From UHGV virus genome UHGV-0108399: DNA of 34,947 bases, one strand, 5' to 3'. Shown here piece after piece: positions 8,543 to 13,270 of this stretch. The stretch comes from a virus. Under the pieces are notes generated by a model that ran no database searches, was not told the origin of the DNA, and was given only the letters and a program-made list of their open reading frames with translations. The translations under genes and the position numbers were made by a program. The first letter of the stretch is position 1, and each line of letters begins with the position of its first letter.

Positions 8543-9202
8543 TTAACTAAATGTCTCTTCAGGCCACTGGCTGGCGATAACTTTCCCTACTACGGAACAG
8601 CTATCATTGCATGGGATCATTGGATATTGCGGGTTTAGTGGTTGTAGGAACACCTGACCGCTATCCCTGATCAGTTTCTTGAAGGTAAACTCCTCACCAC
8701 CAAGTCTGGCTATGCAGAAATCACCTGGCTCAACAGCCTGCTCAGGGTCAACGAGAATTAACATCCCGTCAGGAAAACTTGGCTTGGATCCTGTTGGTGC
8801 GGTCATGGAATTACCTTCAACTTCAAGCCAAAACGCACAATCACTGGCTTTTTTGGTTGTGCTGACCCATCTCTCCGCATCACCTTTGGTAAAGGTTCTA
8901 AGCTCAGGCGAGAACATCCCGGCCTGAACATGAGAAAAAACAGGGTACTCATATTGTTTTTTTACGGGGGCAGATGAGTATTCGCCAACAGGTGAAAATG
9001 TACCGTCGTGGTTGAATGAGACGTTATCAATACCAAGGTATTTAAACACCACACCAATCTCGTCAAGAGATGGATGACGAGATCCGCGCAACCAGTGACC
9101 AATTCCACCCTGCGTCATACCAAGCTCTTCAGCTAACTTCTCTTGAGTTATGCCGAGCTCTTTCATTCTGGATCTAGCCAGTTCATACCATTTCATTTTC
9201 AT
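8543..9202 (-). CDS. cI: CI-type prophage repressor (HTH N-domain + LexA/S24-like C-domain); start at 9202 or 9196
   Basis: C-terminal domain near-identical to the lambda cI C-domain ([39 protein letters not shown] ... [11 protein letters not shown]); N-terminal HTH ([27 protein letters not shown]) is not lambda-like. The track ORF start at 9277 lies in the operator region; AAGGA RBS supports 9202/9196. Confidence 0.85.
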
Positions 9203-9211
9203 ATCCTTATT

Positions 9212-9287
9212 ATTACGCTCTGTACTAAAACCATCCATGCACAAGATGTATTTTTTGTTTGCATTCCAAGAGTACATATCGTATTAT
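9212..9287 (+). promoter_or_regulatory. OR operator region with pR promoter (-35 TTGCAT 9259..9264, -10 TATTAT 9282..9287)
   Basis: Candidate operator palindromes at 9212..9226 (ATTAC-N5-GTACT), 9238..9252 (weak) and 9271..9285 (AGTAC-N5-GTATT); the last sits in the pR spacer. Divergent pRM not precisely mapped. Confidence 0.5.
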
Positions 9288-9313: not shown

Positions 9314-9529
9314 ATGAGCAACCTACGAAAATATCGAGAGTCACTGAATATCTCTCAAACAACCCTTGCTAAGGCGGTTGGATGCACACAGGGGGCTATC
9401 GGACATTGGGAATCTGGTCGTCGCTTCCCAGACCTTAAAACATGCCGTGCTCTTGTTGCGTGCCTAAACAAGTTAGGCGCAAAAGTCAGTCTTGATGACG
9501 TGTTCCCGCCGGAACACCAAGCCGCTTAA
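9314..9529 (+). CDS. cro: Cro-like repressor (HTH_XRE type, 71 aa)
   Basis: MSNLRKYRESLNISQTTLAKAVGCTQGAIGHWESGRRFP...; GGAGGG RBS; recognition region resembles the cI N-domain (TQG-IGHW). The track ORF 9143..9529 is an upstream extension across OR. Confidence 0.8.
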   Translation: MSNLRKYRESLNISQTTLAKAVGCTQGAIGHWESGRRFPDLKTCRALVACLNKLGAKVSLDDVFPPEHQAA

Positions 9530-9539
9530 TAAGCGGATC

Positions 9540-9585
9540 CGCTCTTTTCACAATGGACATTCGTCCTACGTCGCTGACAAAGCGA
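9540..9585 (+). promoter_or_regulatory. nutR (boxA CGCTCTTT at 9540..9547; boxB CGCTGACAAAGCG at 9572..9584)
   Basis: boxA-like octamer followed about 24 nt later by a boxB hairpin identical to the nutL boxB core; immediately downstream of cro. Confidence 0.65.
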
Positions 9586-9670
9586 GTCCCAAGATATCTG
9601 ACCAACTAAGGCCATATGTGTTTCCACGCATACCTTTCAACTAACTATTCACTAATGGAAATATTAAGAA

Positions 9671-9967
9671 ATGACACAAGCAAGTTACAGCAAGCCAACA
9701 CAGCGAGAAATTGATCGCGCTGAAACTGATTTACTCATCAACCTGTCAACGCTTACCCAGCGCGGTCTGGCAAAGATGATTGGCTGTCATGAATCGAAGA
9801 TAAGCAGAACGGACTGGAGATTTATTGCTTCGGTCTTGTGTGCTTTCGGAATGGCATCAGACATCAGTCCGATTAGCAGGGCTTTTAAGTATGCGCTTGA
9901 TGAAATCACAAAGAAAAAATCCCCGGCCGCCACCGAGGATTTTAAGCAAATTGATATGCAATTCTGA
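9671..9967 (+). CDS. cII: CII transcriptional activator
   Basis: 98 aa; HTH region and C-terminus ([18 protein letters not shown]) resemble lambda cII (KKRPAATERSEQIQMEF). Confidence 0.8.
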
Positions 9968-9999
9968 GGGAATTACTGGATCAATCCACAGGAGTAATT

Positions 10000-10146
10000 A
10001 TGACAAAACAACTCAGTCCTTACCAGGACAAAATTCACAAACACATACTACGTGATCGCTTCCTGTCCAGCTTCAAGCAGCCTGGTCGATTCCGGTCTGA
10101 GTTGGAAAAAGTGAAGCTGATGCAGAAGGAGAAAGGTCATGAGTAA
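10000..10146 (+). CDS. Small hypothetical protein (48 aa) between cII and O
   Basis: Hand-translated ORF ([48 protein letters not shown]) with AGGAG RBS 6 nt upstream; 3' end overlaps the start of the O-like gene. Confidence 0.3.
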
Positions 10147-10999
10147 TATTGCAACCGTAACACATTTAAGGCCTTCACAACGGCCTGTGGAGCGTCGTGT
10201 GGCAGAAGTTGAAGATGGTTATACCCGTCTTGCAAATGCCCTGTATGAAGAGCTTATCGGCGCAGATTTAACGAAAAATCAGAGCAAGGTTGCCCACGCC
10301 ATATGCCGTAAAACATACGGCTACGGTAAAAAGATGGATCGCATCTCTGATAGTCAGTTAGCTCAAATTACCAGGCTGCCAAGACAGAAGGTAAACAAGG
10401 CCAAGAATGAGCTTATCGCGATGAAGGTAATCCTTCGCGAAGGCCAGCAAATCGGGCCTAACAAGAACATCGAGGAATGGCAAATCGAAGGGTGTCACTA
10501 CTCTGGTGATAATGTCACTGCATTGGTGACAAAAAGTGTCACCAAAACGGTGACAGCGCTGTCACCAAAACAGGGACACACAAAAGAAACTATTACAAAA
10601 GAAAAAAGAAATAATAAAAACACTATGTCCGAAAGTGTTCGGACGGAGTGTGAAAAATCATCTGACCGTCACGAAGAAACCGACAAGGCATTCGAGGAAA
10701 TATTCTGGTGTGCAGGCATGCGGAAAGCCGGGAAGAAAAACGCAGCTTCAGCATTCAGAACACAGTTCAGGGAATGGCGTAAAACTACCAGGGGTACGGC
10801 AAGCGAGTTTGCCACGATGCTGGCAGAAGACATCGCATGCAGGAATGGTAAGCAGTTCGGATTCGACAGGTTGTTACCATCGAGCTACCTGAACGGTCAG
10901 CGCTGGAACGACGAAAAGCCAGAAACCATTCAACCACAATCCAAACCATCATCCGCAATCACCGTATCGAAAACTGGCTACGTGTTTTTCGACAGGTGA
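10139..10999 (+). CDS. O: Replication initiator, lambda O-like N-terminal domain
   Basis: N-terminal ~110 aa ([56 protein letters not shown] ... GPNKNIEEW) resembles the lambda O N-domain; C-terminal half is unrelated to lambda O. Confidence 0.8.
10504..10620 (+). repeat. Putative replication origin: GGTGAC / GTCACC iteron palindromes followed by an A-rich segment, inside the O-like gene
   Basis: GGTGATAATGTCAC, GGTGACAAAAAGTGTCACC and GGTGACAGCGCTGTCACC in tandem, then AAAAGAAACTATTACAAAAGAAAAAAGAAATAATAAAAA; architecture matches ori-lambda. Confidence 0.55.
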
Positions 11000-11106
11000 A
11001 CCATGAAATCAAAAATCAAATCGTTACTGGCCGCTGGTTATAACCACGGCTGGTTAAGTATTTCGTTTGTCGATTTCTGGTTTAAAAATCTCAATCTGAG
11101 GGAATC

Positions 11107-12987
11107 ATGACGCCAAGTGAACTTAGCGACCTGCTTTGGGCGCAGGTTGACAGGGTGGCTCCGCACCTGTTGCCAAACGGCAAGAAAGAGGGGCATGAGT
11201 GGGTTGCCGGTAACGTCAACGGTGACAAGGGAAACAGCCTTAAGGTCAACCTTAGCGGCAAGAAAAAATGGGCTGATTTCGCTGAGGGAGACGGCGGTGA
11301 CATGCTTGATTTGTGGATGGCATGTCGTGGAATTAACCTGCATCAGGCTATGCAGGAAGCGAAAGCCTTTCTCGGAATCAAGGATGACGATCACCATTTC
11401 GATGCCAAACGTGAGAAGAAATTCTCCAGACCTGACCGCAAGAAAATCGCCCGCTACGTTACCAGAACAGAATCCCATCTTGAGTACCTGCAATCGCGTG
11501 GCATATCGCCAGAAGTCGTAAAGCGCTACGAGGTTGTCAGCGGCAAGGTGTGGAATGGAGAACGAGAACTTGATGCACTGGTGCTTCCGTACAAACGCGA
11601 TGGTGAGTTGTTGCAGGTCAAGCGAATCAGCACTGAGCGCCCGGACGGGAAGAAAGTCATTATGGCAGAAGGTGATTGCGAACCTTGTCTGTTCGGATGG
11701 CAGGCTCTGGACGCTGGCGTGAGGGCGGTTGTACTTTGCGAAGGCGAAATTGATTGTATGAGCTATGCGCAATACGGCATCTCGGCGTTATCCGTGCCGT
11801 TTGGTGGCGGGAAAGGCGCTAAGCAACAGTGGATTGAGTTTGAGTATCACAACCTCGACAGGTTTGAGGAAATATTCATCTCGATGGATGTTGATGATGT
11901 TGGTCGTGAAGCCGCAAGGGAAATCGCAAGCCGACTCGGTGAACATCGTTGCCGTCTTGTTACTCTGCCGTACAAAGACATCAACGAATGCCTGATGAAC
12001 GGTGTTACCGAGGATGAAATCTGGCAGTACATCGGCACGGCATCCTACTTCGATCCTGAAGAACTCTACAGCGCGCGAGAGTTTTACCAGGACACTATCA
12101 ACGCTTTCTACGGCAAGCAGCAGTATCTGTTTAATCCACCGTGGGAATCTCTGGCAGATAAATTCCAGTTCCGTGAGGCAGAGTTGACGCTGGTCAATGG
12201 TGTGAACGGTCACGGAAAAACGGAGGTTGTCGGGCATATGGCACTTGAGGCAATGCGTCAGGGTGTGAAGACGTGCATCGCGTCACTTGAGCTGAAGCCT
12301 GGTATTCTCCTTAAGCGACTTACCCGTCAGGCAACGTGCTGCAAGATGCCGCCAGTGCTGGAAATTGACTCTGCATTTAAATTTTATGACGAAAGACTCT
12401 GGGTGTTTGGCCTGACCGGAACGGCGAAAGCCGACAGGCTGATCGAAATATTCGACTACGCTCGCCGCCGATACGGCATCCAGTTATTCATCATCGACAG
12501 CCTGATGAAATGCGGCATAGGTGACGATGATTATAACGGGCAGAAAGCATTTGTTGACTCGATTTGCGACTTCAAAAACAAAACAAACTCCCACGTCATT
12601 CTCGTTACTCACTCGCGAAAAGGAGACAGCGAAGAAAAACCAACCGGGAAAATGGACGTAAAAGGCTCTGGAGCGATAACAGACCTGACAGACAACCTTT
12701 TCATCATCTGGCGTAACAAGGCTCGCGAGAGAGCGTTACAGAGAGTTCAGAGTGGTGAAAAGATGTCAGAGAAGGACGAACAGCTACTGGCATCTCCGGC
12801 ATCTGTTTTGATGCTTGAAAAACAACGTAACGGCGAAGGTTGGGAAGGTGGCGTCCCGTTGTTCCTTGACGAGCAATCGCACCAGTTCCTGCAACTTGAA
12901 TCAGGATCGCCATATAGCTACATCGCCAATATGCCGAAATCGGAATATGACGAGGCGTGGCGACAGGAAAACGTGACGGAGTATTAA
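11107..12987 (+). CDS. Bifunctional primase-helicase (DnaG-like TOPRIM + SF4 DnaB/T7 gp4-like helicase)
   Basis: 626 aa; TOPRIM motifs (VVLCEGEIDCMSYAQ; ISMDVDDVGREAA); helicase Walker A NGVNGHGKTE and Walker B LFIIDSLMK; N-terminal region looks like a cysteine-poor relic of a primase zinc-binding domain. Confidence 0.8.
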   Translation: MTPSELSDLLWAQVDRVAPHLLPNGKKEGHEWVAGNVNGDKGNSLKVNLSGKKKWADFAEGDGGDMLDLWMACRGINLHQAMQEAKAFLGIKDDDHHFDAKREKKFSRPDRKKIARYVTRTESHLEYLQSRGISPEVVKRYEVVSGKVWNGERELDALVLPYKRDGELLQVKRISTERPDGKKVIMAEGDCEPCLFGWQALDAGVRAVVLCEGEIDCMSYAQYGISALSVPFGGGKGAKQQWIEFEYHNLDRFEEIFISMDVDDVGREAAREIASRLGEHRCRLVTLPYKDINECLMNGVTEDEIWQYIGTASYFDPEELYSAREFYQDTINAFYGKQQYLFNPPWESLADKFQFREAELTLVNGVNGHGKTEVVGHMALEAMRQGVKTCIASLELKPGILLKRLTRQATCCKMPPVLEIDSAFKFYDERLWVFGLTGTAKADRLIEIFDYARRRYGIQLFIIDSLMKCGIGDDDYNGQKAFVDSICDFKNKTNSHVILVTHSRKGDSEEKPTGKMDVKGSGAITDLTDNLFIIWRNKARERALQRVQSGEKMSEKDEQLLASPASVLMLEKQRNGEGWEGGVPLFLDEQSHQFLQLESGSPYSYIANMPKSEYDEAWRQENVTEY

Positions 12988-13016
12988 ATGACCATCTACA
13001 TCACTGAGCTTGTAAC

Positions 13017-13048
13017 AGGCCTGCTGGTAATCGCAGGCCTTTTTATTT
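13017..13048 (+). terminator. Intrinsic terminator after the primase-helicase gene (AGGCCTGC-loop-GCAGGCCT followed by TTTTTATTT)
   Basis: Perfect 8-bp GC-rich stem followed by a T-run on the plus strand. Confidence 0.6.
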
Positions 13049-13063
13049 GGGGGAGGGTAAATC

Positions 13064-13270
13064 GTGGCTGAGTTAATTTTCTCTGCATTGAGGATTCTCG
13101 GTGCTATGTGGATGGTGGTGACGTTCATTGTGGTTGCCAGCAGTTTTATCCGGTTGGTGGGTGAAGGTAAAGACATGGTGGGTGTGCTTTTCGGTAGCAT
13201 TCTCATGTGGGTGATTATCGGTGTTGCGCCTGTCGCTGTAGCAAAAATGGCGTGGCGTTTTGTGAGTTGA
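13064..13270 (+). CDS. Small hydrophobic membrane protein (68 aa, two predicted TM helices, GTG start)
   Basis: GGGGGAGGG RBS 7 nt before GTG; sequence almost entirely hydrophobic (ILGAMWMVVTFIVVASSF ... VLFGSILMWVIIGVAPVAVA). Confidence 0.45.
   Translation: MAELIFSALRILGAMWMVVTFIVVASSFIRLVGEGKDMVGVLFGSILMWVIIGVAPVAVAKMAWRFVS

Follow-up and report, generated by a model that had tools for sequence, protein, structure and literature searches.

Two short open reading frames flanking the O-like initiator gene of a P22/lambda-like prophage are probably genuine microprotein genes with a conserved coupling layout

Introduction

Two reading frames of fewer than 50 codons flank the O-like initiator gene of a P22/lambda-like prophage, raising the question of whether they encode proteins or only link the translation of their neighbours. 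The window analysed here is the whole of a 34,947-nucleotide stretch of viral DNA (UHGV virus genome UHGV-0108399), in which the gene order is cII, ORF1, an O-like initiator, ORF2 and a T7-gp4-like primase-helicase. A sequence-only reading of this DNA had singled out ORF1 and ORF2 as unannotated and had proposed that either might be a real micro-protein or just a coupling frame. The analysis reported here suggests that both are probably real, translated microprotein genes within the early-right (pR) replication block, each laid out for coupling to the next replication gene.

Results

Layout of the locus

The coordinates, lengths, sequences and junctions originally given for the two small ORFs were all correct. 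As had been described, a consensus ribosome-binding site precedes the 48-aa ORF, and the 35-aa ORF bridges the O stop and the primase start with an ATGA overlap at the latter. The ribosome-binding site (AGGAG, 9990-9994) is located 5 nt from the ATG, and the 35-aa ORF begins 3 nt past the O stop. The features of the region are listed in order of position.

9916..9943, minus strand: intrinsic terminator of the leftward oop antisense RNA, within the 3′ end of cII, consisting of a 12-pair stem with a T run behind it, which aligns with the lambda oop terminator region
9990..9994, plus strand: Shine-Dalgarno sequence of ORF1 (AGGAG), 5 nt 5′ of the ATG, from sequence reading and alignment with lambda position 38686
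9997..10025, minus strand: putative oop promoter Po, from its position and homology to P22 Po (-3 to +26 of orf48)
10000..10146, plus strand: ORF1, ATG at 10000 and TAA at 10144-10146, 48 aa (DUF2740 / P22 orf48 / HK620 hkaW)
10126..10131, plus strand: Shine-Dalgarno sequence of O (AAGGAG), within the ORF1 coding sequence, from sequence reading
10139..10999, plus strand: O-like replication initiator, with Pfam, PHROG and NCBIfam TIGR01610 matches
10994..10999, plus strand: Shine-Dalgarno sequence of ORF2 (AGGTGA), which overlaps the O stop TGA (10997-10999) and is kept in all close relatives
11003..11110, plus strand: ORF2, ATG at 11003 and TGA at 11108-11110, 35 aa (PHROG 21848)
11098..11102, plus strand: Shine-Dalgarno sequence of the primase-helicase (GAGGG), in Leu-Arg codons near the ORF2 end
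11107..12987, plus strand: T7-gp4-like primase-helicase, 626 aa, with matches to Pfam and PHROG 239

The O-like initiator contains a Phage_rep_O N-terminal domain and a C-terminal domain, with ori iterons at approximately 10500-10570, and its C-terminal tail is conserved 5′ of ORF2. The primase-helicase contains Toprim and DnaB/RecA-like ATPase domains and shares ~26% identity with T7-group gp4. A 244-aa antisense ORF (11038-11772) is located opposite this well-supported primase gene.

Both small ORFs belong to catalogued families

ORF1 matched Pfam DUF2740 (PF10872) with a score of 97.6 bits against a cut-off of 27, covering model positions 1-43 of 43, and the family is also catalogued as PHROG 1913. 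An identical protein is called by PGAP and appears as 'DUF2740 family protein' in RefSeq E. coli genomes, while the P22 counterpart (83% identical) is annotated as orf48, so the description of ORF1 as unannotated was mistaken. ORF1 is a member of the DUF2740 family, and nothing of substance sets it apart. The protein is basic, with a pI of 10.1. In PHROG and RefSeq the family carries the label 'tail protein', to which its genomic position gives no support; a literature search found no paper mentioning DUF2740.

ORF2 matched PHROG 21848 (E = 4.4e-25, 88.2 bits, profile positions 1-34 of 35), a family that includes ES18 gp60, epsilon34 gp51 and g341c gp46. The ORF is annotated in several phage records, namely ES18 (gp60), epsilon34 (gp51), g341c, 720R6, SaltyDalty and EKP1, and the term unannotated applies to ORF2 only as regards PGAP: it was uncalled in the RefSeq records examined, the stretch was bare in the E. 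coli locus viewed whole, and 10/12 sampled E. coli rows listed only flanking genes at this position. No Pfam or NCBIfam model matched the ORF2 family, and a literature search for ES18 gp60 gave nothing. The protein is basic and has the consensus MK...K..L..GYNHG.....FV...F....LR.., within which GYN(H/Y)G is invariant in homologs down to 43-50% identity and FV and LR are invariant or nearly so. Compared with its PHROG 21848 relatives, the window allele has a private V10A change. When 1.84 billion representative proteins were searched, the only matches were the ORF2 family itself and two spurious repeat proteins; none was a fusion to the primase or the initiator.

AF2 models predicted a helical hairpin both for ORF1 (pLDDT 79) and for ORF2 (pLDDT 77). 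For both ORFs, PDB sequence searches, Foldseek searches with the AF2 models, NCBIfam and PADLOC gave nothing usable, the PADLOC negative weighing little as its library holds defence rather than anti-defence proteins. ORF2 was also considered as a transmembrane peptide; this was rejected, with the highest hydropathy over 19 residues reaching 0.6-0.9 in all variants.

The oop RNA lies to the left of ORF1

The sequence-only reading had placed ORF1 where lambda encodes only the antisense oop RNA. This does not hold for the RNA itself, which runs leftward from ~9990 to ~9912, overlapping the 3′ end of cII and lying left of ORF1; by homology, ORF1 overlaps only the oop promoter. The position of the oop terminator agrees with the P22 annotation and with the description in Fig. 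S1 of PMC3349717. From homology to P22 we infer that Po is located at the start of ORF1. The putative -10 element (CATAAT, 9997-10002) reads as ATTATG on the opposite strand and covers the start codon of ORF1, while the putative -35 element (TGGTAA), in ORF1 codons 7-9, is weak (3/6); a consensus scan gave no Po call. Lambda, P22, ES18 and an Erwinia phage all retain the sequence around the putative promoter. An Rfam scan of 9400-11400 detected no family at or near gathering score, and elsewhere in the stretch there were two weak, sub-threshold chance matches. Lambda has no sequence equivalent to ORF1, and its O gene opens at the ATG that ORF1 uses in the window; a 2012 paper describes lambda as naturally missing orf48 (PMC3349717).

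Both ORFs are under frame-specific purifying selection

The sequence-only reading had proposed comparing synonymous with non-synonymous change in related prophages. This comparison revealed constraint in the proper frame of both ORFs (~0.25-0.35 in frame versus ~0.6-2.3 off frame), favouring real micro-proteins, where the statistics for both ORFs rest on short sequences and embedded ribosome-binding sites and the promoter add some constraint. For ORF1, omega lay at 0.25-0.33 in its own frame and at 0.56-2.3 in the two alternatives. The first 80 ORF1 loci, at 98% identity to the window, were barely informative; at 58% amino-acid identity, all 48 codons were kept and neither indels nor stops had arisen, although 47 of the 147 nt differed.

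For ORF2, pN/pS was 0.22-0.35 in frame versus ~0.7-1.7 off frame. Within clades, values of 0.26 (P = 0.0012) and 0.22 (P = 0.015) were obtained in the ORF2 frame only, and comparing the two main alleles gave an omega of 0.30-0.35 at a dS of 0.59, the same as the dS of the primase. Among 13 diverged homologs the pooled pN/pS was 0.33, with the first 50 primase codons at 0.29, whereas the off-frames gave 1.15 and 1.73 and each contained 1-5 stops; the protein was conserved where the DNA had diverged to saturation (pS 0.70). Every one of the 30 DNA alleles found across 160 loci encodes 35 aa, and a 1-nt deletion in the A-run of codons 2-5 was present in two IMG/VR loci, against 160 that were intact. 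The dN of ORF2 was ~10 times that of the whole primase (0.18-0.21 versus 0.021).

The junctions have the layout of coupled gene pairs

At the ORF1/O junction, the O ATG (10139) is located 5 nt before the ORF1 stop, such that the last 8 nt of ORF1 (ATGAGTAA) overlap O. The window, P22 and Erwinia phage Midgardsormr38 have in common the ORF1 slot and this 8-nt initiator overlap, and the GGTCATGAGTAA junction is identical in all three. In the window the O/ORF2 junction is TGA-ACC-ATG and the ORF2/primase junction is ATGA (primase ATG at 11107). Depending on the clade, the ORF2 ATG is spaced -4, 1, 3, 4 or 7 nt from the initiator stop. The ORF2 stop and primase start were always tightly spaced (13/13 diverse homologs), either joined as ATGA or TAATG or a few nt apart, with a GAGG or GGAG element ahead. 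The layout expected of a coupled gene pair, in which stop and start overlap or nearly touch and the upstream ORF contains the next ribosome-binding site, was found at ORF1/O, O/ORF2 and ORF2/primase, and the arrangement is kept in relatives. Judged by these sequence features, both small ORFs appear laid out for translational coupling. Two further possibilities were rejected: a read-through extension of O into ORF2, as the in-frame relation to O is not conserved, and an N-terminally extended primase isoform, as the primase frame has two stops within ORF2.

On the choice between a real micro-protein and just a coupling frame, the micro-protein is thus favoured for both ORFs and the coupling layout is conserved as well. 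Because both hold, the two readings are not exclusive.

ORF2 is inherited with the primase-helicase

Relatives of ORF2 were gathered by tblastn, by a degenerate DNA pattern and by using the primase N-terminus as a handle. With the primase N-terminus, ORF2 was found in 12/12 species-level loci retrieved; ten have exactly 35 codons, and in the other two ORF2 forms the 3′ part of a longer frame whose first ATG is upstream of the conserved 35 codons. The ORF2 region was present in 292/5426 complete E. coli genomes. ORF2 distance correlated with primase distance (r = 0.83, Mantel p = 2e-4), compared with r = 0.32 for the N-terminal part and 0.49 for the C-terminal part of the initiator. In SaltyDalty and EKP1, ORF2 follows an initiator that is essentially unrelated (~20% identity) and precedes a primase with ~60% identity. 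Where an HNH gene or a 130-nt insert parts ORF2 from the primase, ORF2 is still intact.

ORF2 is missing from the related primase-helicase modules of a Vibrio phage (60% identity) and of Pseudomonas phages (~40%), where initiator and primase directly overlap each other; scanning the regions upstream of the primase in these relatives with a profile did not find it either. This absence indicates that ORF2 is lineage-specific, belonging to phages of Enterobacterales, and that it is not an intrinsic requirement of the primase-helicase. The same absence, with the negative upstream profile search, rules out ORF2 as a universal subunit of the primase-helicase family.

Alternative explanations

If the two ORFs were pure coupling frames, serving only to ferry ribosomes or to hold the next ribosome-binding site and encoding functionless peptides, this would fit with every junction overlapping or abutting and with downstream ribosome-binding sites lying inside the small ORFs, with lambda, Vibrio and Pseudomonas phages managing without small ORFs, and with ORF2 evolving faster than the whole primase. 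However, a spacer need only stay open, yet the amino acids are constrained (frame-specific omega 0.22-0.35), GYN(H/Y)G, FV and LR are invariant or nearly so at 43-50% identity, the lengths are fixed at 35 and 48 codons, and ORF2 is maintained when an HNH gene or 130-nt insert separates it from the primase; we consider this explanation very unlikely. The conservation could alternatively belong to cis-acting elements in the DNA or RNA (a promoter, either that of oop or an internal one, or RNA structure) or to read-through of O, rather than to separate genes. The first ~26 nt of ORF1 coincide by homology with the oop promoter, ACCAGGA.AAA is conserved even in ES18, whose slot ORF is otherwise unrelated, a promoter-like site is present at 10989-11016, and O and ORF2 of the window share a reading frame interrupted only by one TGA (TGA ACC ATG). 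However, variation concentrates at synonymous sites and in one frame only, and the protein is conserved at saturating DNA divergence (pS 0.70); the in-frame relation of ORF2 to O varies among clades (-4, 1, 3, 4, 7 nt), the promoter-like count is under the shuffle expectation (1 found versus 1.9), and no Rfam family came at or close to its gathering score. An explanation from cis-elements or read-through is extremely improbable.

The ORFs could also be real microprotein genes but constitute moron-like cargo (for counter-defence, host takeover or superinfection) that rides in permissive junctions of the replication block. Small ORFs from no fewer than two unrelated families (DUF2740 and PHROG 1331) occupy the cII-O slot, the ORF2-primase junction tolerates insertions, as seen with an HNH endonuclease gene and with a 130-nt insert, ORF2 is lineage-specific, being found in Enterobacterales phages only, and small basic hairpins are typical of phage inhibitor peptides, all of which speak for cargo. 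On the other hand, ORF2 is present in every sampled enterobacterial member of the primase clade and co-diverges with the primase (r = 0.83) rather than coming and going as morons do, the ORF1 overlap of the O start is always the same 8 nt, and no PADLOC match was found, a weak point since the library holds defence and not anti-defence proteins. We regard the cargo explanation as unlikely.

Discussion

The reading that both ORFs are translated microprotein genes, coupled to the next replication gene, is the one we favour. Their coding-type conservation, gene order, co-inheritance and junction anatomy are direct observations. ORF1, a 48-aa basic predicted hairpin, begins at the initiation region that lambda uses for O, together with a putative oop promoter assigned by homology, and ends 8 nt inside O, with the ribosome-binding site of O contained in its last codons. 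ORF2, a 35-aa basic predicted hairpin with an invariant GYN(H/Y)G turn, is a lineage-specific companion of the gp4-like primase-helicase in Enterobacterales phages; it begins at or on the initiator stop and ends on or beside the primase start, its last codons holding the primase ribosome-binding site. Under this reading, ribosomes would pass from each gene to the next.

We suggest only tentatively that both peptides act in replication. ORF1 may be an accessory factor acting with O, and ORF2 may serve the primase-helicase as a small partner, or may modulate either this enzyme or the way in which the initiator tail recruits it. As counter-points to the favoured reading, lambda is without ORF1, and ES18 and epsilon34 hold an unrelated 53-aa PHROG 1331 ORF in the ORF1 slot; for ORF2, the absence from the Vibrio and Pseudomonas relatives, the tenfold dN relative to the primase and the two loci with a 1-nt deletion also count against it.

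A more specific and rather unlikely proposal is that, in lambdoid phages of Enterobacterales, the gp4-like primase-helicase has in ORF2 its own 35-aa subunit or adaptor, whose conserved GYN(H/Y)G hairpin might bridge the C-terminal tail of the initiator and the N-terminus of the primase. The initiator tail is co-varying (...SxEVFIN in one clade), and the N-terminus of the primase-helicase is a degenerate zinc-ribbon-like region. If this proposal were true, ORF2 would fill the role of lambda P, as a minimal helicase-recruitment factor that had so far escaped notice.

As both ORFs fall in catalogued families, the original finding is correct but largely ordinary, and no new kind of system is revealed. 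Its importance is modest: two sub-50-codon frames in a very common prophage module would be genuine genes. It also points to annotation gaps, with ORF2 uncalled by PGAP in the RefSeq records examined and ORF1 bearing a misleading 'tail protein' label. The strict linkage between ORF2 and the primase-helicase provides a cheap, testable lead on the way in which O-type initiators recruit a gp4-like primase-helicase that is self-contained, in place of host DnaB.

Comparison with known systems

Lambda P recruits the helicase, and Cnr of phage P4 binds the alpha primase-helicase. From this general knowledge, the likeness to ORF2 is one of functional analogy only, in that a small protein is encoded beside a replicative helicase or primase and is co-inherited with it. 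No sequence or fold similarity was found for ORF2, which is far smaller (35 aa) and is dispensable in the Vibrio and Pseudomonas relatives.

In its cII-oop-O region, lambda shares with the window a homologous terminator of oop, a homologous ACTGGATC.ATC.ACAGGAGT.ATTATGAC initiation region and the layout of the putative promoter Po. The conserved ATG, however, directly opens O in lambda and opens ORF1 in the window, where the start of O is 139 nt further on and has a ribosome-binding site of its own. A different ORF is found in this position in HK97 (gp53), ES18 (gp58) and epsilon34 (gp49): these 53-aa PHROG 1331 proteins resemble ORF1 in their cII-O slot, conserved start region and overlap with the O start, but past the first few codons their sequence is unrelated and gives no DUF2740 match. 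PHROG 1331 is an alternative occupant of the slot and not an ORF1 homolog.

Known counterparts of ORF1 include the hkaW protein of HK620 and the orf48 protein of HK022, which share 98% identity with it and whose genes adjoin O. In P22, orf48 likewise encodes 48 aa, lies between the cII/c1 gene with oop and O/18, and has the 8-nt ATGAGTAA overlap, all as in ORF1. The helicase encoded downstream differs, being the gp4-like primase-helicase in the window, the DnaB-like gp12 in P22 and a lambda-type P in HK022. As its neighbours include these differing helicase types, the DUF2740 family goes with O rather than with the helicase. For ORF2, the nearest known systems are ES18 and epsilon34, whose 35-aa proteins (gp60 and gp51) are 94% and 71% identical to it and which share the window order of initiator, ORF2 and toprim primase-helicase.

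Two small genes flank the O-like initiator

In this window, a lambdoid prophage of the P22/lambda-like type, two small ORFs (ORF1 and ORF2) flank the O-like initiator gene.

Genes of the replication locus
8543-9277, minus strand: cI-like repressor
9315-9529: cro-like gene
9671-9967: cII
10000-10146, plus strand: ORF1 (DUF2740)
10139-10999, plus strand: O-like initiator (Phage_rep_O)
11003-11110, plus strand: ORF2 (PHROG 21848)
11107-12987, plus strand: primase-helicase, 626 aa (Toprim plus DnaB/RecA-like)
12988-13071: 27-aa hydrophobic ORF (PHROG 5907), starting on the nucleotide that follows the primase stop
13064-13270: 68-aa ORF (PHROG 1165), overlapping the 27-aa ORF by 8 nt

ORF1 has a ribosome-binding site (AGGAG) 5 nt ahead of its ATG, and its final 8 nt (ATGAGTAA) overlap O, the start of which is preceded by its own AAGGAG. 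The ATG of ORF2, preceded by AGGTGA, lies 3 nt past the O stop, and the 3' end of ORF2 forms an ATGA overlap with the start of the primase-helicase, a protein ~26% identical to gp4 of T7-group phages. The last codons of each small ORF contain the ribosome-binding site of the next gene (O for ORF1, the primase-helicase for ORF2). Genes overlap or abut one another at the ORF1/O, O/ORF2 and ORF2/primase junctions, forming a chain, and these junctions are conserved in relatives. The tight chain extends beyond the primase-helicase to the 27-aa and 68-aa ORFs. Inside O, GGTGACA/TGTCACC repeats (10500-10570) resemble the ori iterons of the ES18 and epsilon34 annotations and explain several minus-strand "terminator-like" matches of a consensus scan.

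Both ORFs belong to known families

The sequence-only reading gave the coordinates and sequences of both ORFs correctly, as re-reading the window confirmed, but was wrong to describe the frames as unannotated; the observation is correct and in substance already known. ORF1 scored 97.6 bits against Pfam DUF2740 (cut-off 27) and is called by PGAP in an E. coli prophage that is near-identical; P22 has it as orf48, and homologues in HK620 (hkaW) and HK022 adjoin O. ORF2 scored 88 bits against PHROG 21848 and is annotated as ES18 gp60, epsilon34 gp51, g341c gp46 and in several newer phage records. Every testable feature of membership was present, and ORF1 belongs to DUF2740 (P22 orf48) and ORF2 to PHROG 21848 (ES18 gp60). 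Among the RefSeq records covered, no PGAP call for ORF2 was found: one E. coli locus was read throughout and has no annotation there, and of 12 sampled E. coli rows, 10 list the flanking genes only. The searches run with both families returned no solved structure, fold match or defence-system protein match, and a representative-protein search with ORF2 recovered the family itself only, with no fusions.

PHROG 1913 and RefSeq phage records (P22, mEp043, HK620, HK630) call DUF2740/orf48 a "tail protein". Nothing in its location within the early replication operon supports this label, which looks like a propagated misannotation.

Both frames are maintained as protein-coding

Synonymous and non-synonymous changes in relatives, the comparison that had been proposed as a check, revealed frame-specific constraint on both ORFs. 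Among the window, P22 and Erwinia phage Midgardsormr38 (17-50 differences in 147 nt), ORF1 was constant at 48 codons with zero indels, and omega was 0.25-0.33 in its own frame versus 0.56-2.3 in the other two. Most positions were conserved across 21 cluster representatives (E. coli, Salmonella, Citrobacter). The protein is strongly basic (pI 10.1), and AF2 predicted a helical hairpin (pLDDT 79).

ORF2 loci were gathered with a degenerate DNA pattern for GYNHGWL and combined with loci fetched earlier, giving 160 loci and 30 distinct DNA alleles, every one of which encodes 35 aa. When distinct mutations were counted inside the two main clades, pN/pS was 0.26 in one (12 synonymous, 12 non-synonymous; binomial P = 0.0012) and 0.22 in the other (P = 0.015), and low values were confined to the ORF2 frame (other frames 0.66-1.6). 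The two main alleles differ at 25 of 108 nt (omega 0.30-0.35), with a dS of 0.59 that equals the primase dS. In two further loci (L113 and another IMG/VR locus) the A-run of codons 2-5 has lost 1 nt, placing the ATG out of frame with the remainder of ORF2; either a sequencing error or a rare knockout in nature may explain this.

A search of one-genome-per-species contigs with the primase N-terminus retrieved 12 loci, and in all of them ORF2 lies directly upstream of the primase-helicase (hosts included Shimwellia, Pseudocitrobacter, Pseudescherichia, Citrobacter, Enterobacter, Intestinirhabdus, Leclercia and Pantoea). The frame was exactly 35 codons in 10; in the other two it opens at an ATG further upstream, with the conserved 35 codons as its 3' part. 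Phages SaltyDalty and EKP1 also have ORF2, at ~50% identity. For 13 diverged homologues the pooled pN/pS was 0.33, versus 0.29 for the first 50 primase codons, and off-frame values were 1.15 and 1.73 with 1-5 stops per sequence. The consensus is MK...K..L..GYNHG.....FV...F....LR.., and the single-sequence AF2 prediction (pLDDT 77) is a helical hairpin of helices 3-14 and 20-33, its turn carrying the invariant motif. Hydropathy was too low for a membrane helix.

ORF2 travels with the primase-helicase

Across 12 homologues, ORF2 distance correlated with primase distance (r = 0.83, Mantel p = 2e-4) and weakly with initiator distance (N-terminal part 0.32, C-terminal part 0.49). The primase of SaltyDalty and EKP1 is ~60% identical to that of the window, and their initiator is essentially unrelated to the window O (18-22% identity). 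Where a NUMOD4/HNH gene or a 130-nt insert lies between ORF2 and the primase, ORF2 is intact and the primase still follows. ORF2 was absent from a Vibrio phage (primase 60% identity) and Pseudomonas phages (~40%), an upstream profile search being empty; in these relatives the initiator overlaps the primase start directly. Because of this absence ORF2 is a lineage-specific companion of this primase-helicase in phages of Enterobacterales, and a role as universal primase-helicase subunit is ruled out.

The initiator tail, at the extreme C-terminus, likewise follows the primase clade rather than the rest of that protein. Comparing the window (10955-10996) with the C-termini in related loci L210, L211 and L215-L223, the last ~12 residues are of two types, ...TVSK(T/S)GYV(F/Y)(F/Y) and ...SxE(V/I)F(I/L)N, retained even behind otherwise different C-terminal sequences. 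This is a candidate docking tail.

Eight IMG/VR loci (e.g. L019) and at least one E. coli chromosome (NZ_LR536431) have the NUMOD4/HNH homing-endonuclease gene (164 aa) inserted precisely where the ORF2 stop meets the primase-helicase ATG (window site 11107-11110), and the HNH stop forms a new ATGA overlap with the primase start. In Klebsiella phage phiKp_30 (L089) the insert of ~130 nt sits at the junction, and ORF2 has a variant C-terminus. The primase-helicase match of phiKp_30 and of Min27 (L088) spans ~2.9 kb in 2-3 tblastn pieces rather than 1.9 kb, suggesting that the gene contains an insertion, which may be an intein or a mobile ORF.

Possible roles of the small ORFs

Taken together, both ORFs are probably real genes in a coupled layout. 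Translational coupling would co-express them with O and with the primase-helicase, and their peptides may act in replication. That ORF2 is a specific replication partner is a tentative proposal, and the same proposal for ORF1 is rated lower. Frames serving purely for coupling are improbable, as both ORFs are constrained at the amino-acid level. Still less plausible, to the point of being very unlikely, is a cis-element or a read-through extension of O, since synonymous variation is frame-specific and the frame relation of ORF2 to the initiator varies. Accessory cargo unrelated to replication is unlikely; in its favour are the lineage restriction of ORF2 and the interchangeable content of the cII-O slot, occupied either by DUF2740 or by an unrelated 53-aa ORF of PHROG 1331. 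What is modestly new is the quantitative evidence for ORF2 as a selected gene locked to a gp4-like primase-helicase, which makes a small-adaptor hypothesis directly testable.

Comparison with lambda, P22 and ES18

The PHROG 1331 ORF (HK97 gp53 type) occupies the cII-O slot in ES18 (gp58; L003 1026-1187) and epsilon34 (gp49; L087 501-662). It is unrelated to DUF2740, and only the start region and an ACCAGGA.AAA stretch, which may be the -35 region of the oop promoter, are common to both. ORF1 had been placed where lambda encodes oop; instead, the oop terminator (9943-9916, minus strand) lies within the 3' end of cII, and in the P22 record the oop promoter spans -3 to +26 of orf48, so by homology ORF1 would overlap only the putative promoter. 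The whole cII-3'/oop/initiation region of the window can be aligned with lambda, from which orf48 is naturally missing (Hayes et al., PMC3349717). In lambda the conserved ...ACAGGAGT.ATTATGAC opens gene O, whereas in the window the ATG homologous to the lambda O start opens ORF1, and O comes after with its own AAGGAG.
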